A stretch of 32,000 nt of DNA, from positions 1,796 through 33,795 of the forward strand of contig JBAZYK010000005.1 of assembly GCA_041659405.1 (NCBI GenBank), written 5' to 3'. The notes beneath the pieces are model-generated. The model was given only the letters and a program-made list of their open reading frames with translations. It had not been told where the DNA came from and ran no database searches. Positions within the stretch are counted from its first letter, which is position 1; each line of letters begins with the position of its first letter. Below, piece by piece: positions 1 to 16,422 of the stretch. This DNA is from Candidatus Altimarinota bacterium (GTDB lineage Bacteria; Patescibacteriota; Gracilibacteria; UBA1369). Position numbers and translations under genes: made by a program.

Positions 1-127
1 GTGAATCCCCAACATGGTTTAACCTATTATTTTCTTAAATTCATTACCATTCTTGAGTGATTTTAGATATTTTTCTCTTTTCATTGCCTCTGCTCTCGTT
101 TTAAATAATTCTTTATATATAAGCATG
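1..127 (-). pseudogene. Truncated 3' fragment of the GIY-YIG nuclease gene (last 35 codons, stop codon and 18-nt 3' flank)
   Basis: 127/127 nt identical to 163..289. Read on the minus strand it encodes MLIYKELFKTRAEAMKREKYLKSLKNGNEFKKIIG*, the C-terminus of the intact gene at 181..420. The 5' two-thirds of the gene is missing and is replaced directly by the tRNA-like element at 128..173. Confidence 0.75.
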
Positions 128-173
128 GAATGCCCCGCCATGGCGGGGTGCCTTACCACTTGGTGAATCCCCA
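128..173 (-). repeat. tRNA-like element copy H1, containing the 16-bp perfect palindrome CCCCGCCATGGCGGGG
   Basis: Minus strand reads TGGGGATTCACCAAGTGGTAAGGCACCCCGCCATGGCGGGGCATTC. It differs from copy H2 (446..492) by one substitution and one 1-nt indel. The first 11 nt of a third copy sit at the window edge (1..11). Confidence 0.7.
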
Positions 174-180
174 ACATGGT

Positions 181-420
181 TTAACCTATTATTTTCTTAA
201 ATTCATTACCATTCTTGAGTGATTTTAGATATTTTTCTCTTTTCATTGCCTCTGCTCTCGTTTTAAATAATTCTTTATATATAAGCATGAATGGAAGTCG
301 CTTTCTTGTTGATTTTACTCTTCCTTTATTGTGATAACTCAATCTTTGTTCTAAATCACTACTTTGTCCTATGTAACATTTCCCATCTTTCTTGCTCCTC
401 AACACATATACATAGTACAT
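181..420 (-). CDS. Small GIY-YIG domain nuclease (URI/UPF0213-like, 79 aa)
   Basis: 79-aa ORF. N-terminal YYVYVLRS...GKCYIGQSSDLEQRLSYHNKG matches the GIY...YIG motif pair. A conserved R (STRKR) and E (AEAMKREKYLK) follow. Confidence 0.9.
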   Translation of the reverse strand: MYYVYVLRSKKDGKCYIGQSSDLEQRLSYHNKGRVKSTRKRLPFMLIYKELFKTRAEAMKREKYLKSLKNGNEFKKIIG

Positions 421-433
421 ACTTCAGAATAAT

Positions 434-492
434 ATTCGACCCCCCGAATGCCCCGCCATGGCGGGGTGGCCTTACCACTTGGCGAATCCCCA
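434..492 (-). repeat. tRNA-like element copy H2 (pseudo-tRNA 5' part: acceptor, D-arm, palindromic anticodon-like arm, variable region, half a T-arm)
   Basis: Minus strand: TGGGGAT-TC-GCCA-AGTGGTA-AGGC-C-A-CCCCG-CCATGG-CGGGG-CATTC-GGGGG-GTCGAAT. The D-arm GCCAAGTGGTAAGGC is canonical. The anticodon-like loop has only 6 nt (CAT in the centre). The 3' T-stem and acceptor strand are absent, so this is not a functional tRNA as it stands. Confidence 0.45.
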
Positions 493-579
493 GTGTTTGA
501 ACGCACAATCTTGCAACGCTGTATGGCAAAATGTGCCCATTAAATTTAACAAAAAATGGCTGAAAGTCAACGTCATCAC

Positions 580-610
580 AAAAAGAGCCCTGATAGCAGA
601 GCTCTTTTTA
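580..610 (-). terminator. Putative intrinsic terminator of the minus-strand surface-protein operon
   Basis: AAAAAGAGC-(12 nt loop)-GCTCTTTTT inverted repeat, 27 nt downstream of the stop at 637. A- and T-tracts flank it, so it could act in both directions. The G/C core of the stem is short. Confidence 0.4.
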
Positions 611-636
611 ATTTGAATGTTTAATTATGATAACTT

Positions 637-3495
637 TTACGCTTTTCCTGTTTTTCCGGCTTTGCGTCTTAAGAAAAATGCAATTGGCAGTGTTAACAAC
701 AAATAATAACTTTCCGGGCCGGTTTGGGTAATTTCCAGTGGCAATGGCTCAGAAGAAGCCGCACCATGCAAAACGGTTGTAGTTGTTTTTGTTGTGCCGG
801 TTGCAGTTGCCGGCGTGGTTATGTTTACAGATACTGTTTCTGAAATTGCTTGATTAATAACTCCCGCAGCTGCTGGCGTTGTTGTGTTTGTGGAAACCGT
901 TTCTGAAATTGCCTGATTGATAAATCCTGTGGAAACCGGCGCAGAAGCGCTTGAAGAAAATCCTGTTTCAGCTGCAATTGATCCACTTTGCTCTGGGGCA
1001 ACCGGAGGTGTTGGGGCCGATGGGGCCTCTGTGTTGTCTACAACCGGTGCAGAAATTGAATCCGAACCTGACCCTAGGCCGCCATCTGATAATGGATCTG
1101 TCGGTGGATTTTTGGGCAAACTTGCTGAACCACTATATGGAACATAATCTGTTGGAGTAGTTGTTTTGGTGGCTGTTGGTTGGTTTTGAGCAATAGGCTC
1201 AACAATTGGCGTACCAGTTGTGGTTGGCTGGGTGTCTGGTGGTGCATCTGTCTTCTTTGGCTCATCTGTGGCGGCAGGGGCAACCGTTTTTTCAGCTGCC
1301 ACTGGCGACGAACAGATCGCAAATCCTCCCATTAACTGGCCATCGCTAACAGTTGTTAAATCAATGTTTGGAAGACTACCGGTGGTTGTTCCAGTGCTTG
1401 TCCCGCTGCCGGAACTTGTTGTTACTTGATCCGGATTTCCAAGAACCGTTTCAAGCGAAGTTGTAATTGGCTGTGGATTGCGCTGAGAATCTGTACAGGC
1501 TGTGCTTGAAGTTGGCGGAATAATGTTTCCATCGCGGACCAAAGTATTTCTTAAATCGGCAATTTCACGACTTAAAGTAGGTCTTAAAGAAGTCGTTTTT
1601 TGATCTGTGCTTAAAATTAAATCAACCAGTAACTGTTGTTTCAATCGATCACTACCGCTTGCAATTCTGCAGCTTTGATCGGCAATTTTATTTGATATAT
1701 TATCGTAAACGGCTTGCCATTGTTGATTTCTGTAGGCATCCTGAATGTCTTTATCCTGCTGCTGACAACTATTGAGAGTTGCAGGAGTTGTGGTCAAACC
1801 CGTGCCCCCGGTTGTAGTTGTTGTTGAGCCTGTTGTGGTCGTGGTCGTTCTTGTGTTTGAAGTCGATGTTGAAACCGCCCCTCCGGTTGTTAGTGTTGAT
1901 CCTCCTGTTGCTGTAGTTGATCCTCCTGTTGTTGTCGTTGGTGGAGTTACGCCCACTGTTGTCGATGTTGTTCCTCCTCCTGTTGTTAAATTTGTATTGG
2001 GAGTTGTTGAACTTGTGGTTGTGGTCGTAGAGCTTGTTGTGGTTGTTCCTCCTGTTGTAGGAGTTGTGGTTGGTGTTGTTGAGCTTGTGCTTGCCGTACA
2101 AGCATCATTCCAAGTTTTAAGATGAGAAATTGTTGAAGAGCTCAAAATATATTTATCCTGATTTGTGTAAAGTTCGCTTATTAAGAAGCAGTCATTTGGA
2201 TTGATTCGACTACAAACCGGAGCGCTTGGCGTGGATGAGGTTGATGATCCGCCCGTTGTTGGATTTGGCGTGGTTGAGCTGGAAGTTGGTCCTCCTACTG
2301 TTAAATTCGGAGATCCGGCCACTGCGGATGATGGTGGGGTTCCTCCTACTGTTAAATTCGGAGATCTTACTGCTGCAGATGTTGATGGTGTTCCTCCTAC
2401 TGTCATTGCCGGAGAACCTACTATTGTTGCCGACGGTGATCCTCCTACTGCGTTATTACCAACGGGTGCCGCATTATTCAATACTCCACTATTTGCTGCC
2501 GGAGCTTCCCTTAAATCTGGGATTTGGTTGCTGACTGCAGCCGCGGGCGTGTTACTAATACTTGGGGCTACTGCATTTGAAACCTGATTAGCTGCAGGAT
2601 TATTTGCAATGACTTGAGCGTTATTAGCAACCGCTGCCGCGCCTTGATTAGAAATAGGGGCCGGAGATGGATAATAAACATTGGTGTAATCTGGCTGAGA
2701 TAGCCCCGGTGAAACTTGGTTTATCAAGTTACTAACGTTAGGGGCTGCTGCAGGTGAACGTAAGGCGGAAAGATCAGCGCCAAAATTATTTCCGGAAGTT
2801 GTGGTACTTGTACTTGCTTTTGGAGCATATGTATCGATAGCGCAAGTTTGAGGTACCGCTGTGATATCACCCTTTAAGTTACTGCTTGATCTAAAATAAA
2901 TTGCTGCAGCCACTCCACCTAAAACCAGCAAAACTCCACCAACAATCAAAGCGATTTTCAGATGAGACATTGGTTGGTTTTCCGGTGGCGATGTGAGTTC
3001 GGTTAAACTTAAATCGGTCGCATAAAAGTCTGATGACAATTGCGCGGGATTTTTAACCGGCACTTCTGCCTGTGGCTGACCTGTACCTTTTTGAAGATTG
3101 GTAAAAGAAGTCGCTTCGACTGCCGGTTTTGGAGCTGTGGCTGTTTCCGGTACAGCTTCTTTTTTGACTGGAGCGGTGGCTGGTTCCGGTTCCACCACGG
3201 TTTCTTTTTCAGCAGTTTCAGTCGCAGCCGGAGTTTCCGGTGCAGCCGGAGTTATAGACTCAAGCGAGATTGGTTTCGGCTTTACTTCTTCAGGTGCTTT
3301 TTCCGGCAAAGCTTGAACAACCGGCATAGAAGTTTCCGCTTTTCCATCAACATTAAAAAAAGTCGAAGTATCATTTGCTACGCTGCTTTTAGGTTCGGCG
3401 CTTGGCACGGAAGCAAGACCCGCATCGCCCGTATTTGGGCTTGTGCCGCCCGTGCCCATGCCGTTTCCGGCATTTAAGTTTGTGTCTGGTTCCAT
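637..3495 (-). CDS. Thr/Ser/Pro-rich mucin-like surface protein with an N-proximal TM helix and a C-terminal tripartite sorting signal (952 aa)
   Basis: 952-aa ORF. TM helix LKIALIVGGVLLVLGGVAAAIYF at about aa 190. Long T/S/G/P tracts (TTTTSSTTTTTSSTT...). A Cys-bracketed non-repetitive domain (CQQQDKDIQDAYRNQQW...TAC). The C-terminus reads ...LEITQTGPESYYLLLTLPIAFFLRRKAGKTGKA, i.e. motif, hydrophobic stretch, basic tail. Confidence 0.8.
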   Translation of the reverse strand: MEPDTNLNAGNGMGTGGTSPNTGDAGLASVPSAEPKSSVANDTSTFFNVDGKAETSMPVVQALPEKAPEEVKPKPISLESITPAAPETPAATETAEKETVVEPEPATAPVKKEAVPETATAPKPAVEATSFTNLQKGTGQPQAEVPVKNPAQLSSDFYATDLSLTELTSPPENQPMSHLKIALIVGGVLLVLGGVAAAIYFRSSSNLKGDITAVPQTCAIDTYAPKASTSTTTSGNNFGADLSALRSPAAAPNVSNLINQVSPGLSQPDYTNVYYPSPAPISNQGAAAVANNAQVIANNPAANQVSNAVAPSISNTPAAAVSNQIPDLREAPAANSGVLNNAAPVGNNAVGGSPSATIVGSPAMTVGGTPSTSAAVRSPNLTVGGTPPSSAVAGSPNLTVGGPTSSSTTPNPTTGGSSTSSTPSAPVCSRINPNDCFLISELYTNQDKYILSSSTISHLKTWNDACTASTSSTTPTTTPTTGGTTTTSSTTTTTSSTTPNTNLTTGGGTTSTTVGVTPPTTTTGGSTTATGGSTLTTGGAVSTSTSNTRTTTTTTGSTTTTTGGTGLTTTPATLNSCQQQDKDIQDAYRNQQWQAVYDNISNKIADQSCRIASGSDRLKQQLLVDLILSTDQKTTSLRPTLSREIADLRNTLVRDGNIIPPTSSTACTDSQRNPQPITTSLETVLGNPDQVTTSSGSGTSTGTTTGSLPNIDLTTVSDGQLMGGFAICSSPVAAEKTVAPAATDEPKKTDAPPDTQPTTTGTPIVEPIAQNQPTATKTTTPTDYVPYSGSASLPKNPPTDPLSDGGLGSGSDSISAPVVDNTEAPSAPTPPVAPEQSGSIAAETGFSSSASAPVSTGFINQAISETVSTNTTTPAAAGVINQAISETVSVNITTPATATGTTKTTTTVLHGAASSEPLPLEITQTGPESYYLLLTLPIAFFLRRKAGKTGKA
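800..925 (-). repeat. Two in-frame ~63-bp tandem repeats inside the 952-aa CDS
   Basis: ctgtttctgaaattgcttgattaataa (from ~834) recurs as ccgtttctgaaattgcctgattgataa (from ~897), period 63 bp. At protein level: FINQAISETVSTNTTTPAAAG / VINQAISETVSVNITTPATA. Confidence 0.8.
2285..2455 (-). repeat. About four in-frame 51/48-bp tandem repeats inside the 952-aa CDS
   Basis: cctcctactg starts at 2291, 2342, 2393 and 2441. cctcctactgttaaattcggagatc is identical at 2291 and 2342. At protein level: (G/R)SPNLTVGGTPPSSAVA-type 17-aa units. Confidence 0.85.
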
Positions 3496-3534
3496 ATTGT
3501 TTTTGTGTTAATTTTTATTTTTATTTATCTGATT

Positions 3535-3564
3535 ATTTTAGCACTTTTTGGCTTTTTTTTGCAA
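3535..3564 (-). promoter_or_regulatory. Possible internal sigma70-type promoter for the 952-aa gene
   Basis: Minus strand reads TTGCAA-N18-TAAAAT, about 40 nt upstream of the ATG at 3495. Confidence 0.35.
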
Positions 3565-3608
3565 TTGCTGAAATCCGGCATTTTACCTTATTCCAGAGCT
3601 TTTTCCGT

Positions 3609-3719
3609 TTAGTTTATCGCGCCAAAAAATGGGAGAATCATGCCCAAAACCAGGGTTACTACCATAATAATTCCAACTACCTGCATAATTTTTCTTTGAG
3701 TTTTGTTCATGTTGTTCAT
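3609..3719 (-). CDS. Possible 36-aa single-TM micro-protein (below the ORF-track cutoff)
   Basis: Hand translation of the minus strand: MNNMNKTQRKIMQVVGIIMVVTLVLGMILPFFGAIN*. It starts 10 nt after the stop of the 767-aa gene and has a basic N-terminus followed by one hydrophobic helix. There is no homology evidence. Confidence 0.3.
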   Translation of the reverse strand: MNNMNKTQRKIMQVVGIIMVVTLVLGMILPFFGAIN

Positions 3720-3729
3720 AATAAATAAA

Positions 3730-6033
3730 TTATTGGATCTGACCTATCACTAGAATATTCATAGTGAAAGTATCAATAACATTTTGGCTGTCGGAAACTT
3801 CCAACTTAACCGGATAACTTCCCGGAGTTGCAAAAGTATGAGTTGGTTTTCTGGTCTTTGAACTTTGACCATCTCCAAAATCCCAGCTGTATTTGGCGAT
3901 AGTTCCGGTGGAACAACGTGGATCCAATTCAATTGTTAATGGAGCCGGGCCGGCACTTGCAGTTGGCTCAAAGCAGGCCTTTAATGGCACAGGTCTGACG
4001 TTAATAGGAGTCGTAACGATTGATTTGGAATTATCGGATGCAATAGCTGTAACTTTGACGTTAAAAGTTCCAATTTGGGTGTATTTGTAAGTCACCTTGG
4101 AAACATCAATGCGTTTTGGGCTGCCATCGCCGAAGTCCCATTCATAACTGACGATTTGACCACTTGGATAGCTTGATCCGGAAGCGTCAAAAGTTATGGT
4201 CAATGGCACAACGCCTTCAACCACATCTGCAGTCACGCGGGCCTGTAATCCTTGTGGCAAAACTTTTACCACTAAAAGTGTACTGGCTGTTTTATTTTGA
4301 GAATCAACCACCATAAGAGTGGCGTTAAAAGTTCCTGCATCTTTATAAACGTAAGTAGACTGCTGGCCTGCCGCGTCATTAACACCATCACCGTTAAAAT
4401 CCCATTTATAATCTACGATGCTGCCATTGGCTTCTTTGCTTCCTGAGCCATCAAACTGGACCTGAAACGGTACAGTCCCGGTAATATAGCCGTCGGTTGG
4501 TTTAGCTTGAGCCGGAATAGTTGTAAATGAAGCAAGTGCCGCGCCGACAGGTGTTTCTAAAGTTATTTTTTGGCCGGCAGTTCCGGTTGTGCCTTTGTCA
4601 TCCGTAGCTGTTAAGTTTACTTCATAAGTTCCCGCAGTTTTGTAAGTATGAGTTGCTGTTCTGGTACTTGCTTTTGGAGTCTGATCGCCAAAATCCCATT
4701 CATATTTAACAATTTTCCGAGTCGGACTGGTTGAGTTTTCGCCCAAAAAAGTATATTGAGTTCCGGTGTAATAGTGACCATCTGTTGTTGGAATACTGAT
4801 CACCGCCGTTGGAACATTGGCCCCGGCAACTGTAATATCTTTAGAAACAACAGTTGATTGAAGCGTGTTATCTGTAATGCGTAAATTAACCGTGTAAGTT
4901 CCGGCCTGATCAAAAGTGTGTTCAATTTTTGCACCTTTGCCGTCATTGAAAACGTTTTTATTGTTAAAATCCCATTCATAGGACTGGATCTCCCCTGCCG
5001 GAGCGGAAGATGCCGAAGCATCAAATTTAACCACCAATGGCGCGGGGCCGCTATCCGGAGTCGCCGTAAAATCGGCATTCAATTTAATATTGGAAATCGT
5101 AACTATGTCCGTAAAACTTTGTGATGTTTCTTCACCGGTTGTTTTATCCTTTAGATTAACCGTTAAATTTACATCAAAGCGGCCGTTGTTTCTGCCTTTA
5201 TCTTTATAAGTATGAGATGGAGATTGAACCGTAGAATTTTCACCATCGCCAAAATCCCACAAGAAAGATAAAATTTCATATTTCTGAGTATTGATCGGTA
5301 ATTTTGTACCATCAAATTTAATTAAAATTGGAGCGGTTAAACCAAGCGGAGTCGCAGGATCTGTAACAATTGAACTGGTTGTTGCTTTTGGAACAGCAAC
5401 TTTTTTGGAACTTAAGAAAAGATAAGTTCCAACCCAAACGGAAACCAAAAAGATCAGTAAAAATCCGGAAACGGCGGCCTGTTTGAAACCTTTGTTTTTT
5501 GATTCTTTATCGTCTTTTCTGGCCATGGCCGTACGGAACAGACCAATGATTGCAACAATGAAAAGCGCAATCGAGAAAAACCCAAAAACCACACTCACCA
5601 AACTGATTAAAGTGTTGATGAAAGTTGCTGTATCCAACCCTAAAGCCTTCGCCATTGGGTTATCGCCATTTGTTCCTGTTTGAGCCACGAAAATGAGTAC
5701 CAACAAAATTAAAAGTGCAATTGAACATCCAAAAAAGCCTAAAACGCCATAAATAACTTTTCGTGTATTTGGAGGACGTCTAACCGGAGCAGCTGTGCCA
5801 GGGGTAACCGGACGTGGCTGTTGGTTGAGCGGCTGATTAATTGGTGGCTTTGAAGCCGGTTGCGCGCTTGCCTGCAGTGGAGCCTGAGTTTGTGGCTGGG
5901 CAGGAGCCGGCATTGCGCCTTGCGCCTGTGCGGGAGCCATAGGCTGAACCGAAATTGGCGTAGGTTGCACCGGTGGCGTAGCGGCCGGTTGTCCCTGATT
6001 TTGTGGATTTTGGTTTGAGTTTGGTGTATCCAT
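3730..6033 (-). CDS. Polytopic membrane protein with a P/Q-rich N-terminus and six PKD-like domains (767 aa)
   Basis: Three hydrophobic helices (VIYGVLGFFGCSIALLILLVLIFVA; FINTLISLVSVVFGFFSIALFIVAIIGLF; AAVSGFLLIFLVSVWVGTYLFL). Six repeats follow, each carrying the PKD signature WDFGDG or a variant (FLWDFGDGENS, YEWDFNNKN, YEWDFGDQT, YKWDFNGDG, YEWDFGDGS, YSWDFGDGQ). Confidence 0.9.
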   Translation of the reverse strand: MDTPNSNQNPQNQGQPAATPPVQPTPISVQPMAPAQAQGAMPAPAQPQTQAPLQASAQPASKPPINQPLNQQPRPVTPGTAAPVRRPPNTRKVIYGVLGFFGCSIALLILLVLIFVAQTGTNGDNPMAKALGLDTATFINTLISLVSVVFGFFSIALFIVAIIGLFRTAMARKDDKESKNKGFKQAAVSGFLLIFLVSVWVGTYLFLSSKKVAVPKATTSSIVTDPATPLGLTAPILIKFDGTKLPINTQKYEILSFLWDFGDGENSTVQSPSHTYKDKGRNNGRFDVNLTVNLKDKTTGEETSQSFTDIVTISNIKLNADFTATPDSGPAPLVVKFDASASSAPAGEIQSYEWDFNNKNVFNDGKGAKIEHTFDQAGTYTVNLRITDNTLQSTVVSKDITVAGANVPTAVISIPTTDGHYYTGTQYTFLGENSTSPTRKIVKYEWDFGDQTPKASTRTATHTYKTAGTYEVNLTATDDKGTTGTAGQKITLETPVGAALASFTTIPAQAKPTDGYITGTVPFQVQFDGSGSKEANGSIVDYKWDFNGDGVNDAAGQQSTYVYKDAGTFNATLMVVDSQNKTASTLLVVKVLPQGLQARVTADVVEGVVPLTITFDASGSSYPSGQIVSYEWDFGDGSPKRIDVSKVTYKYTQIGTFNVKVTAIASDNSKSIVTTPINVRPVPLKACFEPTASAGPAPLTIELDPRCSTGTIAKYSWDFGDGQSSKTRKPTHTFATPGSYPVKLEVSDSQNVIDTFTMNILVIGQIQ

Positions 6034-6060
6034 TTTTTTATTTTTAAAATATTGAAAAAT

Positions 6061-9000
6061 TTATTTTTGCTTCTTTGATTTAAGCACTCTCATGCTAACA
6101 AAGAGTATACCAAATCCGGCTATAGTTACAAGCACGCCCGGAATTTCATTGGAATTGGTTCCGGCAAAAATATCTACTCCAAGTTGACTCTTGATTGGAG
6201 CGTTCGGTACATCAAAAACAATGTCTTTAATAACGGAACTTTTAGTTCCCTTATCATCAACAACCGTAAGTTTTACGCTGTCCTGGCCGTAGCTTTTGAA
6301 AAATTGAGTTGTCCATGTTCCGGGAGCTGTTGTTTTGTAATCTTCATCATCATCTTTAATGCCATTTCCATTGGAATCGTAATAAATATTTTTATCAATA
6401 ATGTAAGATTTGATCGGCCCGCGGGAATCGCTAAAATTAAAAATTACCGTTCCACTATCCCCTTGCAGATGGATTCTGTTATCGGTAACACTTGGCGCTG
6501 GAGCACTGGTTAAACGCGCCTCAAGTTTTTGCAAAGTTTGTGTTGGCTGTGTTGGTTGCTGGATTGGAGTAACCACAGGCACAGGCTTAACTATCTGCTG
6601 AGTTACTTGTTGGGTTTTTGTAACTACAAGCACAGGAGCTTTTATATTCACAAAATTTATAACGCTTGCCTGATTTCCCTGGTCGTCCGCAACAACTAAT
6701 TTAGCCCTGAAAACTCCGTAATCCGGATATTCATAAGTTGGAGCCTGCTCGGTAGAATCAAGATCATTGTCTTTAATACCGTCGCCGTTAGCATCGACAG
6801 CAAGATTAAAATCCCAGCTGTATTTTGCAAGGTTTGCACCATTTACCGCATCGGCAGTGGAATTATTGGTAAATTGGATTTTTTTGCCATCCAGCTGCTG
6901 TGAGGTGAAAGCGGCAACCGGTGGCGCAGTCTTGGCATCAACATACATCATAACCGGATCGGAAATTGATTCCGCACCATTGTTGTCGATTACCTTTAAT
7001 TTAACTTTGACGCCATCTTTATATGGCTTGGTGTAAACATAACTGACGTTTGGTTTGTTGTAATCATTAGTCAAAACATTGTCGGCAAAACCGTTGCCTT
7101 CAAAATCCCAAATGTAGGTAGCAATACTGCCGTTGGCATCCGGATCGGTTGAACTGGATGAAAAACTGACGGTATCACCGACCATAACATTGGTACGATC
7201 AACGTTTAATTTGGCAACCGGAGACTTATTAGGCCCGTTTGTTACTGCCAGTTTTGGAATCATGCTGTCATCAAGACCATCCTGAGTATTAAAAGTTTGA
7301 TTATCGTTATCGGTCGCCATTACGGCAAACCCATAAGTCTTTTTTTGGCCTTCTACTCCATTTGTACCAATTACGATAGTAGTATTTGGAGATTCGCTAA
7401 GCTGCAATCCTTTTTGATCTTCCGGATTATCAATATCGTAATACCACCAGCGATAGCTAACGATTTTGCCATCCGGATCATTTGCGCCGTTGGCGGTTAC
7501 GTTAACATTAACCGGAGTTGTAGTTGAAGTTCCTGCTGGAATTGCCGTTAAGCCCTGAACAACCGGTGGCTGTGTCGCTACATTAATATGGATTTCATCA
7601 ATAGGACTAACCTGTGTAGCGTCATCCTGATTGGTTACTTTTAGAGTTATTTTATAGTAAGGTTTATCCTTTGGTGTTAATTCGGTAAAGGTATGAGTAA
7701 CCTGTTTTTTGGTACTTAAAGTGCCATCACCAAGATCCCAACTGTAATTCAGTTTCTTGCCTGTGCCATCAATATTGATTGATTTGCCGGCATCGAAAAC
7801 GAATTGAGTTTTTCGATTTGCGGTAATTGTTGAGCTTGTATCACTTAGATCGTTACCATCCTGAGTTAACGAAATGGCCGCCACAGGTATATTATCGGAA
7901 GCGATAAATACTTTTCTAATAGTATTGTTTTGATTGTTGTTATTATCAAAAACCATTAATTTTGCGATAAAACTTCCGGATTTATTATAAGTATGTTTAA
8001 CAGTGAAAGGACTTGCGGTAATGGATCCATTTTCTTTTGCTCCATCACCGGTATCCAATTCATAAGAAACACCATTAAGACTGCTCATGACAAAATTTAC
8101 ATCAACGCTGCCGGCATTTAACTTGGCAGTAATTGGTTTTCCATCATCTCCCCAACCTACATCAAGATCATTATCAACGGTGATTCTTTGTTCCTGAGTT
8201 GTGACCTTTGCAATTTCCGCCGGATCACGAACACTTAAAGTGATGGTGTACTTACCTTTATTAAGTCTTACTTTTATTTTGGAAAGATTTTTGTCGGTAC
8301 TATAATCTTTAAAGAAGAGTACGCAGTCGTTTTCGGTTTTGCCATTTATATAAGTACAATTTCCCGGAGCGGTGCTGAATTCCCATCTATAGGCAATGTC
8401 TTCGCTGCTATCCGGATCATAACTTTTGGCACCATCCAAAATGTAAGTATTTGGTTGTGATTTGTCCGAATTATCGAAACTGAACTGGGCGACCGGTGGC
8501 TTTGAAACCACATGGATACGTACAACTGTCGAAGCATCATTTGAACCGTCACTAACACTTAGTGAAACATCATAATTGCCGGGCTCTTTAAAAGTATATT
8601 TAAGGGTATCAACATTTTTGGCCTCCGGAGGAGTTAGATCAATGCTGTTACCGCCCTTTGTGGCCAATTGCATAATTTTCCAGTCATAGGTTTTAACTTG
8701 ACTGTTTGCGCTGGCGGAAGCTGATCCATCGAATGTGGCCTGATCATTTAATTTTAATTCATTACCGTGAGTAACATTAATGCGGGCTGCAATCGAAGAA
8801 ACAACAATGTTGAAAATCTTGCGATCTGTAATGCCACGATCATCCGTTACTTCCAAAGTAACACGATAAGAACCTTCTTTTATGTATTTAACTGTCTGTA
8901 CCTGAGAAATAGTATCCGGCGGTCCTTCCACGGTATTCTTAGTATTGGATTTGTCACCAAAATCCCATTTTACTTTGGCAACCGGACTATTCTTAATGGT

Positions 9001-10824
9001 TGGATCATTAAAAGGTAAACCATTTCCGGTTTTAGTTTCACGTCCATCAAGGCTGATTCCGGTTTTGGCTTCTTCCGTAGTAATGGAAAGATCCTGAATG
9101 GAACTAAGTGAAATACCATTATTATCATATTTTGACATCCAGAAAGATTTTCCATTAACGGTTGCCTGTAAATTAATTCTGGATGATGGTGGCTTAACTG
9201 TAACCGTAGTGTAAACAATTCCATCAACTGGTTTTTTAGGGTTGTTTTGATCTTCCGGAGCGGCCACTTTTAATTTGACCACATAAGTTCCCGGATTTTG
9301 ATAAATACATTGACTCACAGTACCGGTTTTTTCACCACTGTTATCACCACAACTCCAGGTGAAATTATTATCCGGAATTGTATTGTTATTTGGATCAAGA
9401 CTCTTTAAAGCATCCAAATTAACAACCAGTGGAGCGTTTCCCTGGCTAATATCCGCATGAATTGCACTATAGACAAATTGCAGGTCCTTAACTTTTTCAT
9501 AAAGAGAAGACATATCTTTAACAATTTGGAGCATGGCGGCGTTATCCGGCACACTCTTAAGTGTTGGTAAAGCAGGACTTAAATCCGCTGCATGAACCAC
9601 GTCCACGAAAACCAAAGCTAATCCCTTTAAAATGGAATCCGCCTGACTGTTTAATGAAACGACATTTCCACGAATTATTTCAGATTGAAGATCATTTTTG
9701 TTTACCAATGTTTCAAGATCTCCGGTAACGTTATCAAAACTGGTCTGAATCTCGGGCAAATCGCTGGCCTGCTTGATGCGGGCGGAAAGTTCCGTTAATT
9801 GGCTATAGGCTTTAATAACAGCCTGGGCAAAATCCTGATTATTGGCGCCCATTAAACCGGTTTGTTCAACCGAACCCGGGGCCTGACTTGCCTGATCCAA
9901 AAAGGTATCCGCACCGGCTTCATTTTTAATGTCGTTGGTGTACGTACTGTAATTGGTTTTATACCAAAATTGTTCCCAATAAGTGTTTGGGTCTTTTTCA
10001 CTTGCAACCTCATCGATGGCTTTATCGGAAATCTTTAAATATTTATCATAAACCAGCAACATGTGCTGGGCTTTTTCCGATACCTGACTTAAAGATCCGG
10101 CTTTGACCAGTATGTTATTTAAAATATTCTTTTTATTCTGAAGAGTACTCTTTAATGTTTGTGGTGAGGTGATTTGTTTTTCCAAATCAACATTGATAAG
10201 CGTCAGCACATCTGTACGAATTTCGGAATAATTTTGATACGCGGTAAGAAAATCACGCGCAATCTGCTGAACGGCAATAGCGGCATAATTGAAAAATGCG
10301 CGTCGATCGGAAGTTGAAACTGTTCCGCCAGTGGCAGCTCCGTTAAGTGTATTGTTTTCTTTTCCGCTTGGAGCCTGCAAAACCGTGTTAACAATGGCGA
10401 AAGATCCCATAATAATCAAAAGACCCGTAACGGCATAGGTGATGGACTTTTTACCAACCTCGGTTTTATCTTCCTTGCCCATGGCTGTTACATAAAGCAC
10501 ACCTCCGTAAACAATTACCAAAACGGCAATTAAACCCAAAAAGCCTAGCGCAAAATTGGTTACATTACGAATGTAGTCTCGGGCAGTTGGGGCTTGCGTC
10601 AATGCCGGGGCGTAGCCGGCCGTGTCCGGAGCGGTAAGTCCGCCCTGAAAATTGGTAAAAGTGGTTTGTTCTCCACCGCCGCAAGAAAGAATGCCTTTGG
10701 TGGCATCACTTACGCTGCCGCAGAAATCAAACGCACCTGCCTGCATTGGCATGGTTAAGCTTAAAATCATGCCTAAAGTAAGCATGATTTCCTTTATTTT
10801 TGTGTTTTTCAGGATATTATTCAT
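6061..10824 (-). CDS. Giant surface protein: signal peptide, one VirB2/TrbC-like pilin module, a helical region, ~10 PKD-like domains and a C-terminal TM anchor (1587 aa)
   Basis: Signal-like N-terminus (...LSLTMPMQAGA). Pilin-type module FALGFLGLIAVLVIVYGGVLYVTAMGKEDKTEVGKKSITYAVTGLLIIMGSFAIVNTVL. PKD signatures (VKWDFGDKS, YSWDLGDGT, YIWDFEGNG, YSWDFNLAV and others). Acidic Ca-loop-like DANGDGIKDNDLD and DSNGNGIKDDDED. C-terminal VLVTIAGFGILFVSMRVLKSKKQK. Confidence 0.9.
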   Translation of the reverse strand: MNNILKNTKIKEIMLTLGMILSLTMPMQAGAFDFCGSVSDATKGILSCGGGEQTTFTNFQGGLTAPDTAGYAPALTQAPTARDYIRNVTNFALGFLGLIAVLVIVYGGVLYVTAMGKEDKTEVGKKSITYAVTGLLIIMGSFAIVNTVLQAPSGKENNTLNGAATGGTVSTSDRRAFFNYAAIAVQQIARDFLTAYQNYSEIRTDVLTLINVDLEKQITSPQTLKSTLQNKKNILNNILVKAGSLSQVSEKAQHMLLVYDKYLKISDKAIDEVASEKDPNTYWEQFWYKTNYSTYTNDIKNEAGADTFLDQASQAPGSVEQTGLMGANNQDFAQAVIKAYSQLTELSARIKQASDLPEIQTSFDNVTGDLETLVNKNDLQSEIIRGNVVSLNSQADSILKGLALVFVDVVHAADLSPALPTLKSVPDNAAMLQIVKDMSSLYEKVKDLQFVYSAIHADISQGNAPLVVNLDALKSLDPNNNTIPDNNFTWSCGDNSGEKTGTVSQCIYQNPGTYVVKLKVAAPEDQNNPKKPVDGIVYTTVTVKPPSSRINLQATVNGKSFWMSKYDNNGISLSSIQDLSITTEEAKTGISLDGRETKTGNGLPFNDPTIKNSPVAKVKWDFGDKSNTKNTVEGPPDTISQVQTVKYIKEGSYRVTLEVTDDRGITDRKIFNIVVSSIAARINVTHGNELKLNDQATFDGSASASANSQVKTYDWKIMQLATKGGNSIDLTPPEAKNVDTLKYTFKEPGNYDVSLSVSDGSNDASTVVRIHVVSKPPVAQFSFDNSDKSQPNTYILDGAKSYDPDSSEDIAYRWEFSTAPGNCTYINGKTENDCVLFFKDYSTDKNLSKIKVRLNKGKYTITLSVRDPAEIAKVTTQEQRITVDNDLDVGWGDDGKPITAKLNAGSVDVNFVMSSLNGVSYELDTGDGAKENGSITASPFTVKHTYNKSGSFIAKLMVFDNNNNQNNTIRKVFIASDNIPVAAISLTQDGNDLSDTSSTITANRKTQFVFDAGKSINIDGTGKKLNYSWDLGDGTLSTKKQVTHTFTELTPKDKPYYKITLKVTNQDDATQVSPIDEIHINVATQPPVVQGLTAIPAGTSTTTPVNVNVTANGANDPDGKIVSYRWWYYDIDNPEDQKGLQLSESPNTTIVIGTNGVEGQKKTYGFAVMATDNDNQTFNTQDGLDDSMIPKLAVTNGPNKSPVAKLNVDRTNVMVGDTVSFSSSSTDPDANGSIATYIWDFEGNGFADNVLTNDYNKPNVSYVYTKPYKDGVKVKLKVIDNNGAESISDPVMMYVDAKTAPPVAAFTSQQLDGKKIQFTNNSTADAVNGANLAKYSWDFNLAVDANGDGIKDNDLDSTEQAPTYEYPDYGVFRAKLVVADDQGNQASVINFVNIKAPVLVVTKTQQVTQQIVKPVPVVTPIQQPTQPTQTLQKLEARLTSAPAPSVTDNRIHLQGDSGTVIFNFSDSRGPIKSYIIDKNIYYDSNGNGIKDDDEDYKTTAPGTWTTQFFKSYGQDSVKLTVVDDKGTKSSVIKDIVFDVPNAPIKSQLGVDIFAGTNSNEIPGVLVTIAGFGILFVSMRVLKSKKQK

Positions 10825-10885
10825 AGTTTTTGTTTTTATTTATCATATTATTTTAGCATAAAATCCACTTTTCTTTAAGGGCTAA

Positions 10886-11914
10886 TTAAAGACCCGGGTT
10901 TGTGGGCAAACTTGCCGGCGAACTTGAGCCGGCTTTTTCGGAGCCGGTGGTCGGTTGCAGGGTTACAACGGTGTTCACAATTCCAAAAGCAGCCATGGCC
11001 AATAAAAGACCTATGGTAGCCCCAATAAAGACTTTCTTGGCTTTAGCGGTGTTATCTTCTTTACCAAAAGCAATAACATAAAGGTAACCTCCATAAATGA
11101 ACATAATTGCTGCGACAGTTGCGGCGAATCCGGAAATAAAATTGGTTAATTTTACCACAAATTGCGCGGCGACTACGGTATTTGGCAGTGTTTTTCCCTG
11201 ACTTGGGAAAAGTACATCTTTGATCGCAAATTCGGAAATTCCAATCACAATCAGACCTACAACGGCCCACATAATCTGTTTTTTAACCTTACCCTGAACT
11301 TCTTCATTGCCGGCGCCAATAACCAAACGGAAACCTCCAATTACAATCATCAAAATTGCCAAAGCGGCGGCAAAATATTCCATAAAACTGTAGAAGCCTT
11401 TGATGGTTTCGGTCCCCTGTTTGGCCGCATCTAAAAGCTCCGCCTGGCTGCGATAAATCTCGCCCTGAGCGCCCCAAAATACTTTTACAACCTGATCGGC
11501 AATAATAATAACGAGCAGACCAATAATCGCATATTTAAGGTTTTCTTTTTGTTTATCCGCGATCTGATCAACCTGGCGGCCCGAGGTAATCAGACGAATT
11601 CCGGAAACAATAATCATAAAAATGGCAATAGTGCCCATTACATATTTTGCAAAATCAATCGCATACCAAACGGCGCTTGTGATGTTGCTTGCGCCCGATT
11701 CAATCGAGGCGTTGGCATTGGCGTTGGTGTTGTAAGTGGGAAGTCCAATATTGTTTTCGAGTTGATTTAAAACTCCACCCGGAGACTGAGCATTGGTTTG
11801 GGCATTTGCCGGAACTGTCAGGGTCAAAACAAGGCTGGCCAAAATCAAAAATCCACACAGTGGAATAACTGTTTCTTTTAGAATTTCGCTAATTTTTTGG
11901 ACGAACTTTTTCAT
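10886..11914 (-). CDS. Secreted/membrane protein made of three tandem VirB2/TrbC-like pilin modules (342 aa)
   Basis: Signal peptide (...LTLTVPANAQ). Three modules of hydrophobic helix, G-rich turn, charged loop, hydrophobic helix: IAIFMIIVSGIRLITSGRQVDQIADKQKENLKYAIIGLLVIIIA; LAILMIVIGGFRLVIGAGNEEVQGKVKKQIMWAVVGLIVIGIS; VAAIMFIYGGYLYVIAFGKEDNTAKAKKVFIGATIGLLLAMAAFGIVNTVV. Confidence 0.85.
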   Translation of the reverse strand: MKKFVQKISEILKETVIPLCGFLILASLVLTLTVPANAQTNAQSPGGVLNQLENNIGLPTYNTNANANASIESGASNITSAVWYAIDFAKYVMGTIAIFMIIVSGIRLITSGRQVDQIADKQKENLKYAIIGLLVIIIADQVVKVFWGAQGEIYRSQAELLDAAKQGTETIKGFYSFMEYFAAALAILMIVIGGFRLVIGAGNEEVQGKVKKQIMWAVVGLIVIGISEFAIKDVLFPSQGKTLPNTVVAAQFVVKLTNFISGFAATVAAIMFIYGGYLYVIAFGKEDNTAKAKKVFIGATIGLLLAMAAFGIVNTVVTLQPTTGSEKAGSSSPASLPTNPGL

Positions 11915-11934
11915 TTTTATTTTAAAATTTATTT

Positions 11935-12984
11935 TTATTGACCCGGCAGAGTCCCGCCGGTTGGTTGTGTCACTTGTCCGTTGCCGCTGGTGCCAAAATT
12001 TCCGGAAATAATTGTGCTCACAATGGCAAAAGATCCATACATGATAATAATTCCAACAAGAGCTGAAACAATGATTCTTTTGGCTTTCCCCTGAGTTTCT
12101 TCATTGCCCGCGGAGGCAATATACATAATGCCGCCCGCAACCAGAGCTATGATGGCGATAGGGCTAACGATACTTAAAACCATGTTGGTGAATCCCACCA
12201 ATTCACTTACGCCCTGAGCGGGATTGAATGATGGCGCCGCTCCTCCAACAGTGGGGTAACGTGTAACATCAACTTTGTAGAAGACGTTGTTGATAATCGG
12301 ATCGGCAATAATAATCAAGAATAAGCCCAGCGCGCCATAAGCAAGGTTCTTTTTATCCAGGGCAATTTTGTCTTCCGCGCTGCCCATTGCAATCATGCGC
12401 ATGCCACTTCTGACAACGAAAAAAACCGAAATCGCGCCAATAAGATATTTGATGAAAGTTACGATAAATTTGGCTTTTTGGTCAAAAATAGTCACCGAAC
12501 GGATAATCGCATTTGGGTCTTTTAAAAAGCCTCCCTGCGTACAGGCAAGTCCGGAAAAGTCCTTACCGTTTTCACAATAAACCGAGAAAATACGGGCAAG
12601 ATCTCCGGAAAACCCAACAACCGCCAAGCCGATTATGCCGTAAATGATGGTCGATCTTTGCTTGGTATAAACTTCTTCATTTCCGCCGCCAATAACCATT
12701 CTGATGCCGGCATAGACGATTAAGCCTACAGCAACAGCTCCCAAAAGATAGCGCACGTTTTGGATAACGCTTAAGGCTAAGCTAAAAACTTGAGCGGAAG
12801 CACTGCCTTGCGCCGGAGCCTGCAAGCCGCTGTAGCCCGGCGTGGAAATACTTGGCAAAGGCAAAGTGGTGGTGGTCTTTGCGTTTTCGGCTAAAGCTAA
12901 AGGCATACTCGCAGTTAATACAACCGCTAAAGTTGCGCTAAAAATTGCCAATTTGACCAAGAATTTGTTTATTTTTTTGAGCAT
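11935..12984 (-). CDS. Paralogous protein with three tandem VirB2/TrbC-like pilin modules (349 aa)
   Basis: Signal peptide (...ASMPLALAEN). Modules: VAVGLIVYAGIRMVIGGGNEEVYTKQRSTIIYGIIGLAVVGFS; ISVFFVVRSGMRMIAMGSAEDKIALDKKNLAYGALGLFLIIIA; IAIIALVAGGIMYIASAGNEETQGKAKRIIVSALVGIIIMYGSFAIVSTII. It has the same architecture as the gene 20 nt downstream. Confidence 0.85.
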   Translation of the reverse strand: MLKKINKFLVKLAIFSATLAVVLTASMPLALAENAKTTTTLPLPSISTPGYSGLQAPAQGSASAQVFSLALSVIQNVRYLLGAVAVGLIVYAGIRMVIGGGNEEVYTKQRSTIIYGIIGLAVVGFSGDLARIFSVYCENGKDFSGLACTQGGFLKDPNAIIRSVTIFDQKAKFIVTFIKYLIGAISVFFVVRSGMRMIAMGSAEDKIALDKKNLAYGALGLFLIIIADPIINNVFYKVDVTRYPTVGGAAPSFNPAQGVSELVGFTNMVLSIVSPIAIIALVAGGIMYIASAGNEETQGKAKRIIVSALVGIIIMYGSFAIVSTIISGNFGTSGNGQVTQPTGGTLPGQ

Positions 12985-13014
12985 ACCGACAAAATACGCT
13001 TAATAAATCTATTT

Positions 13015-13042
13015 ATTATACCAGACAATGGGTCTTTGTGAA
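13015..13042 (-). promoter_or_regulatory. Sigma70-type promoter with an extended -10, driving the pilin/PKD operon
   Basis: Minus strand reads TTCACA-N16-(TGG)TATAAT. The -10 is consensus with an upstream TG. It lies about 30 nt upstream of the ATG at 12984. Confidence 0.6.
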
Positions 13043-13059
13043 AGGCAAAGAGCGCGAAA

Positions 13060-13244
13060 CTTGCTCACAGCTTTTTCAGGTGGTTTTCCGGAGGGAATGG
13101 CTTCTTGGCGAACGCTTCGCCTGTTCGCTGCGGCTACCATGTACGCCTCCGCGAAGGTCTCGCATCATGATGCTCGACCGGCTGCGCTCGCAATGTCGCC
13201 AAGAAGCCATTCCCTCCGGAAACTTGGAGAAACCTGTGGGCAAG
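13060..13244 (+). ncRNA. Candidate structured RNA or palindromic element: long G+C-rich hairpin with a perfect 27-bp stem (13085..13111 / 13196..13222) around an 84-nt core
   Basis: TTTCCGGAGGGAATGGCTTCTTGGCGA is exactly complementary to TCGCCAAGAAGCCATTCCCTCCGGAAA. An outer 11-bp helix pairs 13060..13070 with 13234..13244, and partial pairing bridges the two. Every non-Watson-Crick pair is G-U only when read on the + strand. The region is visibly more G+C-rich than its flanks. No known RNA family was recognised. Confidence 0.4.
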
Positions 13245-13347
13245 GACGTAGTATTTGCAAAACGCTATTTTCTCAAAATCTTTGTATATTTAACTTGTTT
13301 TTAGTAGGATGGGCCCCTGATTGCGCTTGGATTCTAATAAATTATTT

Positions 13348-13638
13348 ATGGCATTTGAAAATGCTCCAAAAGATTTGCTTGTAATAAAAAAAGTCATGGA
13401 AGAAGAAGTAATGCCTGCAATTAAAGAAAAAAGGTACTTCGTCGCCCAAATGGAAATAGGAAATATCCTTGGTGGAGTAGATCAAGATCTGGTGAGAGAC
13501 GAACATTGTGGCATGGGCTTAATTGCAAGTCTAAAAGCTTTAGAAAAGGCGTTGAAAAAAGAAAAAGTTGATCAACTTGAAGGTGGAATATTAAGAGTTA
13601 GGGCTTATTTAGCCCAAGCGTTGATGTATTATCGGTAA
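13348..13638 (+). CDS. Hypothetical small soluble protein (96 aa from the first ATG)
   Basis: ORF MAFENAPKDLLVIKKVMEEEVMPAIKEKRYF...LAQALMYYR. The ORF track extends it to a TTG at 13321, but the ATG at 13348 is preferred. No recognisable motif. Confidence 0.45.
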   Translation: MAFENAPKDLLVIKKVMEEEVMPAIKEKRYFVAQMEIGNILGGVDQDLVRDEHCGMGLIASLKALEKALKKEKVDQLEGGILRVRAYLAQALMYYR

Positions 13639-13652
13639 AGATTTGTTTTAAT

Positions 13653-13707
13653 GCCGCGCAACAATATCCGACCAGCTAGTCCATGCGTTGGCGTGGCCTT
13701 TCTCCTT
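13653..13707 (+). terminator. Possible terminator hairpin after the 96-aa ORF
   Basis: GCCGCGCAAC...GTTGGCGTGGC forms an imperfect ~10-bp stem (one bulge, one G-U) followed by CTTTCTCCTT. The loop is long (~24 nt), so this is weak. Confidence 0.25.
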
Positions 13708-13754
13708 GAATAACACGTAGTTTTTTTGAAAAAAGCGGTTTTTCTAAAATCCGC

Positions 13755-13783
13755 TTGAAAAGCTTGGGGGATGTTTGTATACT
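13755..13783 (+). promoter_or_regulatory. Sigma70-type promoter of the secE-nusG-rplK-rplA operon
   Basis: TTGAAA (13755-13760), 17-nt spacer, TATACT (13778-13783), about 80 nt upstream of the secE ATG. Confidence 0.6.
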
Positions 13784-13861
13784 GGCATTCGGGTTTGGGC
13801 CGAGCTTTTTAAAGGTGTGGTCGTCTCAATAATTACTATCATTTCTTTTGTCTAAATCAAC

Positions 13862-14197
13862 ATGAAACGTTTTATAGAAGCCACTAAAAACTATTTTCAG
13901 GACAGTTATCAGGAATTAAAAAAGGTAACCTGGCCAACTCGTAATAAGGCTATTCGTCTGACATTGATTGTTTTGGGTTTTTGTTTAGTTGCAGCCATTG
14001 TAATGGGTGCTTTAGATCTTACTTTTAATACAGGTTATCGTTATTTGGTTGATTATGCTGCAAAAGTTGCTCCAGCTCCGGCTCAGGTTGAACAAACCGC
14101 TCCATCAACTCCATTAAGCGCAGAGGGATCACCAATTACAATAGCTCCGGGGTCAGTTAAGGTTGATGCTGTTCCGGCTACAACTCCTACAAAATAA
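13862..14197 (+). CDS. secE: Preprotein translocase subunit SecE (with a C-terminal extension)
   Basis: ELKKVTWPTRNKAIRLTLIVLGFCLVAAIVMGALD is the SecE signature (KKVxWP plus a single TM helix). It sits immediately upstream of nusG. Confidence 0.9.
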   Translation: MKRFIEATKNYFQDSYQELKKVTWPTRNKAIRLTLIVLGFCLVAAIVMGALDLTFNTGYRYLVDYAAKVAPAPAQVEQTAPSTPLSAEGSPITIAPGSVKVDAVPATTPTK

Positions 14198-15954: not shown

Positions 15955-16422
15955 ATGGCTACAGCATCTCAATCTATTGAAGCTCCCGGTAAAAAAAGTC
16001 ATCGAATTATTCGCAACATTTATCTTTATCTGGTTGCGATGATTGGGTTGATAACTCTGGTTATCGGCTTGGTTGGGATCATTAACAATGTTCTTCAAAA
16101 TTACGTTTTCCAGGTTAATGACAATATCTACAGTACACCTGTTCCTTATCCGGGTATGAAAAATGGTGGATGTGATCAATCTTATCCTGATCCAACTGAT
16201 ACAACCGGCAAAAAACTGATTACACCAACTGCGCAAGAGGTTCAAAAATGTGACCAGGTATTAAAAGATCAGCAGGAACAAAATCGTCGTAATAACATTG
16301 GTAGAGAATTTTCGATTTCCATCGCTCAAATTATGATTGGATTTCCTTTATGGCTCTATCATTGGGGCGTGATCCAAGCCGAGTATAAGCGCAAAGAAGA
16401 AGAAACCACCAAGAAGAAATAA
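15955..16422 (+). CDS. Hypothetical two-TM membrane protein inserted between rplK and rplA (155 aa)
   Basis: Two hydrophobic helices (IYLYLVAMIGLITLVIGLVGII; ISIAQIMIGFPLWLYHWGVI) flank a Cys-containing loop. The tail is K/E-rich. Confidence 0.65.
   Translation: MATASQSIEAPGKKSHRIIRNIYLYLVAMIGLITLVIGLVGIINNVLQNYVFQVNDNIYSTPVPYPGMKNGGCDQSYPDPTDTTGKKLITPTAQEVQKCDQVLKDQQEQNRRNNIGREFSISIAQIMIGFPLWLYHWGVIQAEYKRKEEETTKKK

Follow-up and report, generated by a model that had tools for sequence, protein, structure and literature searches.

The Patescibacteria account for a large part of bacterial diversity and are believed to be attached to hosts; to our knowledge, only in a few Saccharibacteria has the hardware for this been described. 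The locus described here raises the question of what surface structure is encoded by a row of six genes that takes up ~12 kb of a genome of roughly 1–1.5 Mb, and how such a structure could be assembled. The row lies on the minus strand of a 32,000-nt stretch of contig JBAZYK010000005.1 (hereafter the window), from a metagenome-assembled genome (MAG) labelled Candidatus Gracilibacteria (locus tag WC843_02975). We find that it is very probably a conserved, co-oriented envelope cassette of VirB2-like hairpin membrane proteins and PKD-domain surface proteins, and it would belong to the lineage core of the Peregrinibacteria/Peribacteria (class Gracilibacteria in GTDB). More tentatively, the hairpins may co-assemble as a polymer, or a pilus base, resembling the pilus of a type IV secretion system (T4SS), on which PKD adhesins are displayed and for which an unlinked T4SS serves as the energy source. 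Given its size of ~12 kb, its retention at one locus throughout an order and its near-consensus promoter, the cassette probably specifies a major envelope structure.

Organization of the Cassette

The cassette consists of six minus-strand open reading frames (ORFs), five long and one of 36 codons, separated by gaps of 20, 61, 27, 10 and 113 nt. The genes and their flanking signals are as follows:

11935–12984, minus strand: gene A, 349 aa
10886–11914, minus strand: gene B, 342 aa
6061–10824, minus strand: gene C, 1587 aa
3730–6033, minus strand: gene D, 767 aa
3609–3719, minus strand: micro-ORF, 36 aa, starting 10 nt past D
637–3495, minus strand: gene E, 952 aa
13015–13042, minus strand: putative sigma-70-type promoter with extended -10 element (TTCACA-16-TGgTATAAT), ~30 nt upstream of gene A
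3535–3564, minus strand: weak candidate internal promoter for E (TTGCAA-18-TGnTAAAAT; 9/12 match, with TG), in the 113-nt gap between the micro-ORF and E
579–610, minus strand: intrinsic terminator hairpin at the operon end (14-bp stem, 4-nt loop, U-run)

An initial annotation of the window had described a single-strand envelope operon with an extended -10 promoter at one end, a hairpin at the other and a possible micro-ORF among its genes. The ORF coordinates, the exact gap lengths and the lack of structure in the gaps agree with this description. Read from 13042 to 13015, the promoter matches consensus at 11 of 12 positions and ranks best among the 27 promoter-like sites found in a scan of positions 1–14000. 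By chance alone, 28.4 ± 5.0 such sites would be expected, which 27 does not exceed; the support for this promoter therefore comes from its position and match quality and not from enrichment. The terminator hairpin has a free energy of −19.2 kcal/mol, with an A5 run on one side and a U5 run on the other, and the 81-nt segment that contains it folds at z = −4.2 relative to shuffled sequences. In the same type of folding test, the A–B, B–C, C–D and D–micro gaps were A/U-rich and unstructured, with no hairpin comparable to the terminator, and the micro–E gap contained a weak hairpin (z about −2) just upstream of the candidate internal promoter. The simplest reading of these signals would be a single transcript from A to the micro-ORF, driven by one strong promoter and probably extending by read-through into E, which may also have a weak promoter of its own.

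Under genetic code 11 the long ORFs are intact, and nearly all stop codons are TAA, so that the alternative Gracilibacteria code does not come into question. Among 24 window genes that were checked, the stop codon was TAA in 19, TAG in four and TGA in one, and the starts were preceded by A/T-rich leaders with no recognisable Shine–Dalgarno sequence. The GC content of the cassette is similar to that of its surroundings.

For comparison, genomes were scanned, one for each GTDB species. This gave 46 related loci, of which nearly all carry the label Peregrinibacteria, Peribacteria or Gracilibacteria, and six more were added by exact lookup. ORFs were called in these loci (numbered with the prefix L) and searched with the window proteins.

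Genes A and B Encode Triple Pilin-Type Hairpins

Gene A encodes a signal peptide (…PLALA, cleaved before E) followed by three tandem two-helix hairpins of the VirB2/TrbC type. Gene B is a paralogue of A, with a signal peptide (…PANA, cleaved before Q) and three hairpins of its own:

~12571–12801, 12265–12498 and 11989–12231, minus strand: the three hairpins of gene A (PF18895 matches and hydrophobic segments)
~11459–11689, 11201–11428 and 10949–11179, minus strand: the three hairpins of gene B (PF18895 matches)

Three matches to the Pfam family PF18895 (T4SS_pilin; cut-off 26.6 bits) were found in A (E = 1.4e-19, 70.4 bits) and three in B (E = 6e-24, 84.3 bits). The TrbC model (PF04956; cut-off 27.9 bits) matched B above the cut-off, at 31.7 bits, and A below it, at 24.5 bits. 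In NCBIfam, the top match of A, B and C was NF045849, a pilin-like family from integrative and conjugative elements (ICEs) of mycoplasmas, with scores of 24–35 bits that lie under the cut-off of 40 bits. Profile–profile comparison with hhalign showed that the seven hairpins of A, B and C are mutually homologous (probability 94–99.6%) and fall into two subtypes, one comprising A1, A2, B1 and B2 and the other, here called type 3, comprising A3, B3 and C1.

In each repeat, a basic loop (GNEE…KxKK) connects two hydrophobic helices of ~30 residues, and the linkers between the repeats are acidic or neutral. By prediction, this alternation fits the topology of VirB2, with both ends outside and the loop inside, three times over. 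The conserved linkers between the hairpins (VFFGEQGE and FPxQGxxLPD) contain no A-x-A site, for which reason the triple units probably stay fused as proteins with six transmembrane (TM) helices. None of A (349 aa), B (342 aa) and C (1587 aa) is thus a small single-hairpin subunit with a mature length of ~70–120 aa. An AlphaFold2 (AF2) model of B displayed three helical hairpins with six long helices, at a mean predicted local distance difference test (pLDDT) score of 65. When this model was compared with the Protein Data Bank (PDB) by Foldseek, only chance helical matches were returned (E > 0.3), and a profile of the type-3 hairpin, searched against PDB sequences, gave rhodopsin-type noise and reached no solved structure of VirB2, TraA or TrbC.

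At their N-termini, A, B and C carry Sec signal peptides of the classical kind, in which an A-x-A site follows the hydrophobic region. We considered whether the three could be type IV pilus pilins and rejected this assignment, since the signal peptides are not of class III (cleavage between G and F/MxxxE). No match to T2SSE, PilC or prepilin peptidase was found among the window proteins with Pfam.

Proteins of this architecture are not confined to the window. More than 150 full-length homologues of B, 300–400 aa in length, share its conserved motifs, and a library clustered at 50% identity contained 5666 representatives that matched at E ≤ 1e-3. Among the best 150 of these, nearly all cover all three hairpins and some have up to seven matched stretches, which indicates that tandem-fused PF18895 proteins are widespread. 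The C-terminus of B (10886–10960) forms an extracellular tail with an LPT[NS][GP]-like motif (SLPTNPGL in the window) and no TM segment after it. The same tail was found in the subclade nearest the window (L003, L011, L014, L015 and L021). The motif was discarded as a feature of the B family because it is absent from the more distant orthologs.

With six TM helices each, and conserved polar and charged residues in them, A and B might instead be polytopic transport or channel proteins, or a substitute for the VirB6 platform, in which case the PKD proteins would capture substrates or polymers of the host surface. VirB6 homologues are reported to be undetectable in class Gracilibacteria (Quinonero-Coronel et al. 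2025; PMC12102498), which would leave room for such a substitute. However, neither protein shows similarity to any transporter or VirB6 family, and their helices clearly amount to a pilin-type hairpin repeated three times. We therefore regard a transport role as improbable.

PKD Proteins C and D and the Micro-Protein

In the third gene, a pilin-type hairpin is fused to a giant surface protein. From its N-terminus, C consists of a signal peptide, a hairpin, an all-alpha region of ~290 aa, about seven PKD domains, a C-terminal TM anchor and a lysine-rich tail. The fourth protein, D, has a Pro/Gln-rich cytoplasmic N-terminus, three TM segments and PKD domains on the outside. The hairpin of C and its possible counterpart in D are located as follows:

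10369–10599, minus strand: type-3 pilin hairpin of gene C (PF18895)
~5392–5652, minus strand: TM2–basic loop–TM3 unit of gene D (pilin-hairpin topology)

Pfam searches returned a single PF18895 match in C, at residues 84–146 (33.8 bits; cut-off 26.6), together with seven matches to PKD_4, and six PKD_4 matches in D. These matches, and those in A and B, agree with the domain architecture given in the initial annotation, namely two triple-pilin proteins, a pilin–PKD giant and a polytopic PKD protein. The hairpin of C aligned with B3 at a probability of 99.6% and 43% identity (hhalign). The region that follows it (residues 171–460) was helical, at low confidence, in an AF2 model of residues 1–480 (pLDDT 51). 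A homologue search with these 480 residues had returned only six matches, and the resulting model was too weak for a fold search.

The C-terminal anchor of C is conserved in most orthologs; about five end without it. Most orthologs also carry a GAN[ILV][FLY]-like motif ~15–20 residues before the anchor (the window C-terminus lies at 6061–6200), and by its position this motif could be a processing or sorting signal. In D, the sequence of TM1 is that of an uncleaved signal-anchor. The evidence for a hairpin in TM2–3 is weak: the profile of this unit matched B3 and C1 with hhalign probabilities of only 61–63%, and a pilin-like NCBIfam match to D had an E-value of 0.05.

The micro-protein has a basic N-terminus, one TM helix and an invariant proline, and matches no Pfam family. 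A homologue of 33–38 aa is present 0–39 nt after D in 22 of 32 species, and it was called as a gene in L007 and L008. What had been listed as a possible micro-ORF is thus a real, conserved gene.

Conservation of the Cassette at the secE–nusG Locus

We compared the gene order of the window with that of its relatives, which are MAGs of Peregrinibacteria and Peribacteria. Orthologs of A, B, C and D numbered 45, 49, 38 and 34, respectively, and wherever a locus had sufficient sequence, the order and orientation of A-B-C-D were essentially always the same, which amounts to about 35–40 species. The synteny whose absence would have counted against the initial annotation is therefore strongly conserved. 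In the relatives, the cassette is always divergent from secE-nusG-U242-rplK-(DUF5671)-rplA, usually across an intergenic gap of ≤ ~100 nt. (In the window, the region between A and secE, 12985–13861, is 877 nt long and holds a 96-codon ORF without a family; a few relatives have 1–3 kb of inserted genes there, and most have ≤ ~100 nt.) Across the syntenic species, the identity of B to the window protein falls to ~32%. For A, B and D, median identity to their window counterparts stands at 43%, and for C at 34.5%, compared with 53% for SecE, 71% for L11 and 82% for NusG. A, B and D are thus about as conserved as the more variable of the housekeeping neighbours, for example SecE. A–D behave as a core cassette that the whole order keeps at one housekeeping locus, and not as a variable host-range island; only E is hypervariable. 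In the Peribacteria subclade L036–L045, A-B-C-D is kept, with neither a micro-ORF nor an E-like gene; in L036 and L040, D is followed by a convergent Lyase_1 gene of the fumarase/adenylosuccinate-lyase type.

The conserved position bears on two alternatives. PF18895 and the mycoplasma ICE family are both associated with conjugation, and an HNH-like gene related to one at 19029–20426 adjoins the cassette in a few relatives, so that the pilin array might stem from a conjugative or integrative element, as a remnant or as cargo left after its transfer genes were lost. The synteny largely refutes this idea: the chromosomal position is the same in more than 35 species spanning 32–60% identity. Furthermore, there is no integrase, relaxase or repeat, the GC content does not depart from that of the surroundings, and the pattern of conservation indicates purifying selection. 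We give an element remnant almost no credence. It is also very improbable that these are unrelated surface genes, adjacent by coincidence and sharing no common structure. In favour of coincidence, E lacks conservation and may be transcribed from a promoter of its own. However, the order and orientation of A-B-C-D have been kept across the order, a hairpin domain is common to A, B and C and PKD arrays to C and D, and the gaps are tight and unstructured.

Assembly Machinery and Published Systems

No homologue of VirB4, VirB6, VirD4, PilB or sortase was found among the ORFs tested in the window, which included all long ones. Within ~10 kb of the cassette in ~45 related loci, there was likewise no VirB4, VirB6, coupling protein, PilB or sortase, and the only unassigned Walker-A proteins of at least 300 aa in the flanks were FtsK and RecG, both in one distant locus. 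The absence of an assembly ATPase or secretion gene in cis, on which the initial annotation had remarked, thus extends well beyond the window.

The same situation has been met elsewhere in the phylum. In a survey of 3035 Patescibacteria genomes, VirB4 was found in 2417, and VirB2-like pilins (PF04956/PF18895) in 1948 VirB4-positive assemblies, where they adjoined virB4 in 1135 of the 1948 (PMC12102498). With about 40% of patescibacterial pilin genes unlinked from virB4 in this survey, the lack of machinery in cis is typical of such genes and not anomalous. In class Gracilibacteria, the survey found the homologues of TrsD and VirB3 to be mostly unlinked from virB4. A literature search returned no paper that mentions Peregrinibacteria together with VirB4.

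The survey also described 441 "VirB2 arrays" of two to 11 pilin genes, in tandem or one non-pilin gene apart, which consist of separate small genes and are most abundant in Microgenomatia and Saccharimonadia (PMC12102498). A, B and C, as three consecutive PF18895 genes on a Patescibacteria chromosome, fall within this definition. Like the cassette, the published arrays are rows of diverged PF18895/PF04956 pilin genes that are chromosomal, lack a relaxase and are often unlinked from virB4. Unlike them, the cassette multiplies hairpins within polypeptides (3 + 3 + 1), has a hairpin fused to a PKD giant of ~1400 aa, and is tied, order-wide, to PKD proteins and a micro-protein at the secE–nusG locus. 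The main text of the survey mentions neither intragenic pilin fusions nor pilin–PKD fusions, and a full-text search for PF18895 or "T4SS pilin" retrieved no further paper on this family in Patescibacteria. (Among protein-structure clusters specific to freshwater, PF18895 is reported to be the Pfam domain of highest abundance.) Whether the genes belong to already characterised families, a question on which the initial annotation had made its reading depend, thus has a mixed answer: PF18895 is catalogued and arrays of pilin genes are published, whereas the triple-fused pilins, the pilin–PKD fusion and the fixed chromosomal position appear undescribed. These features, together with the conserved 36-aa subunit, are what the cassette adds to the published arrays.

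More distant comparisons show similar partial likenesses. VirB2 of Agrobacterium, TrbC of RP4 and TraA of F share with A and B the cleaved signal peptide, the two hydrophobic helices and the short basic loop, but canonical T4SS pilins, unlike A–C, are single hairpins of ~70–120 aa encoded inside a virB4-containing cluster. Proteins of NF045849 (the Mbov_0395 family) resemble A–C in having a VirB2-like hairpin in a monoderm, MPF-FATA-related context; they differ in being single small proteins on mobile elements. The Pam pilus (bioRxiv 10.64898/2026.03.03.709456) is, like the cassette, a surface system with Ig-like domains from the candidate phyla radiation, and is thought to be a host-contact filament, but in that system donor-strand exchange links pilin subunits of the Ig fold, and there are chaperone-like partners. 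None of the family models for PamA, PamB, PamC, PamD and PamR reached its curated cut-off in the cassette. The sole match, of PamR to D (37.9 bits; cut-off 300), fell within a PKD domain and reflects PKD/Ig similarity, and membership in the Pam system was rejected.

A Model of the Envelope Structure and Its Alternatives

In the arrangement that we tentatively favour, A, B and C would be exported by Sec and cut at their A-x-A sites, and each hairpin would insert so that its two ends face outward and its basic loop inward, giving seven clear hairpins and a possible eighth in D. Within the membrane, the hairpins would then come together as a polymer, or a pilus base, like that of a T4SS pilus, with its bulk supplied by the triple units of A and B. 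C, and probably D, would join this assembly through their own hairpins, so that their PKD arrays project outward as adhesins, with the 36-aa peptide as an accessory membrane subunit. Energy and extraction would be provided by T4SS components encoded elsewhere, such as the homologues of VirB4, TrsD and VirB3 that are reported to be dispersed in the class. The initial annotation had seen in the block a candidate for host attachment, assembled by factors encoded elsewhere or by Sec alone; both host attachment and assembly by Sec alone are putative.

A polymer of this kind is supported by a related cluster of pilin, pilin–PKD and PKD genes in another lineage. In this distant locus (L057:714-12264), the order is pilin-pilin-mutY-GIY-YIG-pilin-(pilin-PKD)-PKD-PKD, comprising two multi-hairpin pilins, a two-hairpin pilin, a 518-aa pilin–PKD protein and two PKD giants. 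A second distant locus (L055:9000-10852) has only the A–B pair, beside mutY and ftsK. There was no T4SS ATPase near either cluster.

Several observations weigh against such a polymer. We know of no characterised T4SS pilin in which three hairpins are covalently fused, and the linkers of A and B, being devoid of A-x-A sites, would probably leave the six-TM units whole. C is anchored at both ends, which makes it a better match to a membrane-tethered loop than to a subunit of an extruded fibre. The hairpin profile does not reach any solved VirB2, TraA or TrbC structure, the AF2 models of B and C are of low confidence, and Foldseek gave no significant match. Finally, no VirB4, VirB6, type IV coupling protein or other Walker-A ATPase lies within ~10 kb in ~45 loci.

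Part of this evidence speaks for the main alternative, a static complex independent of any T4SS, which we consider somewhat unlikely. In such a complex, the hairpins would be anchoring or oligomerisation modules and A and B a six-TM scaffold inserted by Sec/YidC, with C, D and the 36-aa peptide forming a tethered, PKD-rich coat or S-layer-like lattice, from which nothing is extruded. The absence of an assembly ATPase in cis in any relative, the fused hairpins without internal cleavage sites, the C-terminal anchor of C in addition to its N-terminal hairpin and the uncleaved signal-anchor of D are all consistent with this arrangement. The fixed housekeeping locus and order-wide conservation resemble those of a core envelope component, and tandem multi-hairpin proteins, with up to seven matched stretches, are common. 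On the other hand, the hairpin domain is homologous to the TrbC/VirB2 pilins, and its conserved acidic/basic loop motif (GNEE…KxKK) is nearer to pilin loops than to generic anchors. Furthermore, in Saccharimonadia the same family lies inside an essential T4SS cluster; that of Southlakia epibionticum contains an essential series of pilin genes (Wang et al. 2023; PMC10633639).

A further alternative, which we think unlikely, is that the hairpin proteins are not T4SS substrates at all, and that the concatenated VirB2-like hairpins (3 + 3 + 1, perhaps + 1) are a self-contained envelope polymer assembled by Sec/YidC. The product would be a new surface filament or membrane lattice, with the PKD-giant adhesin built in through its own pilin hairpin. 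If so, the cassette would specify an ancient, order-wide attachment organelle that is either derived from conjugative pilins or ancestral to them.

Whether the hairpins form a T4SS-pilus-like polymer or one of these other structures, the triple fusions, the hairpin–PKD giant and the lack of an ATPase in cis challenge the default label of "T4SS pilin" for PF18895. For this uncultured lineage, the cassette also offers targets for study: A and B as conserved, presumably abundant membrane proteins, C and D as candidate adhesins, and E as a hypervariable candidate for host specificity.

Gene E Encodes a Variable Mucin-Like Protein

E has a low-complexity N-terminus, a TM segment at residues 174–203 and an ectodomain rich in S, T, P, A and G (57%), with two Cys-bounded islands. 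Its C-terminus (…ITQTGPESYYLLLTLPIAFFLRRKAGKTGKA) looks like a sorting signal, consisting of the motif ITQTGPE, a hydrophobic stretch and a basic tail (RRKAGKTGKA). No match to E was found in Pfam or NCBIfam, and none to the LPXTG models at E ≤ 10. The description of E as a sorted protein in the initial annotation is plausible in view of the tripartite C-terminus, but the motif is ITQTGP and there is no LPXTG model match.

No sequence homologue of E was detectable in the related loci, where the sole likeness is in position and composition. The genes at this position encode low-complexity proteins of 270–950 aa, of which five have an x-[ST]-G-P motif (P-x-[ST]-G-P or SETGP), a hydrophobic stretch and a basic C-terminus of the RRKKK type. 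Judging by these C-termini, E is plausibly a sorted surface protein, and it would be a fast-evolving, probably glycosylated, sortase-processed coat or specificity protein. Profile searches found no sortase among the window proteins tested. Peribacteria genomes have been reported to encode sortase A, a type II secretion system along with type IV pili, in an account that does not mention the operon.

A parallel is offered by PrgB and PrgC of the Gram-positive conjugative plasmid pCF10, an adhesin and a repetitive surface protein with a sorting signal that are encoded alongside a monoderm-type T4SS; the composition of E and the signal at its C-terminus are like those of PrgC. There is, however, no sequence similarity between E and either protein, the motif of E is x-[ST]-G-P and not LPXTG, and there is no sortase or T4SS in cis. 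ARAGORN placed a 99-nt tRNA-Arg(CCG) at 3107–3205 on the plus strand, antisense to E. This call is probably a false positive, as Rfam finds no tRNA there or anywhere in the window.

Neighbouring Genes

The other genes of the window are largely of the housekeeping type, comprising the secE-nusG-unknown-rplK-DUF5671-rplA cluster, DUF1385, dut, tmk, folD, purF and purD, along with an AAA_14 ATPase, a YtxH protein and a surface protein with SLH and FlgD_ig domains. The unknown gene between nusG and rplK (14772–15500, plus strand) encodes a 242-aa protein with an N-terminal TM segment and no family match, and an ortholog of 203–298 aa (median 31% identity) occupies this slot in nearly all loci that cover it. 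It constitutes an unusual break in the conserved secE-nusG-rplKA cluster. A second lineage-specific insertion is the DUF5671 membrane protein gene between rplK and rplA (15955–16422, plus strand), which is found in the same slot in at least 14 related loci.

At 19029–20426 on the minus strand lies the HNH-like gene mentioned above. Its 465-aa product, U465, has no Pfam match and ends in an HNH-like motif (CxxC…DHH…CxxHxxxH). Shorter homologues occur at varying positions in five relatives, including the space between secE and A in L005, L042 and L048, which suggests a mobile nuclease-like gene. As an HNH-type protein that neighbours the cassette in some relatives only, U465 was ruled out as a part of it. 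FlgD_ig domains were found in two window proteins: a 197-aa protein with one such domain (20914–21507, plus strand) and an 847-aa protein with three, together with three SLH domains (29002–31545, minus strand). The SLH domains of the latter point to a system in this genome for anchoring proteins to an S-layer or a secondary cell-wall polymer.

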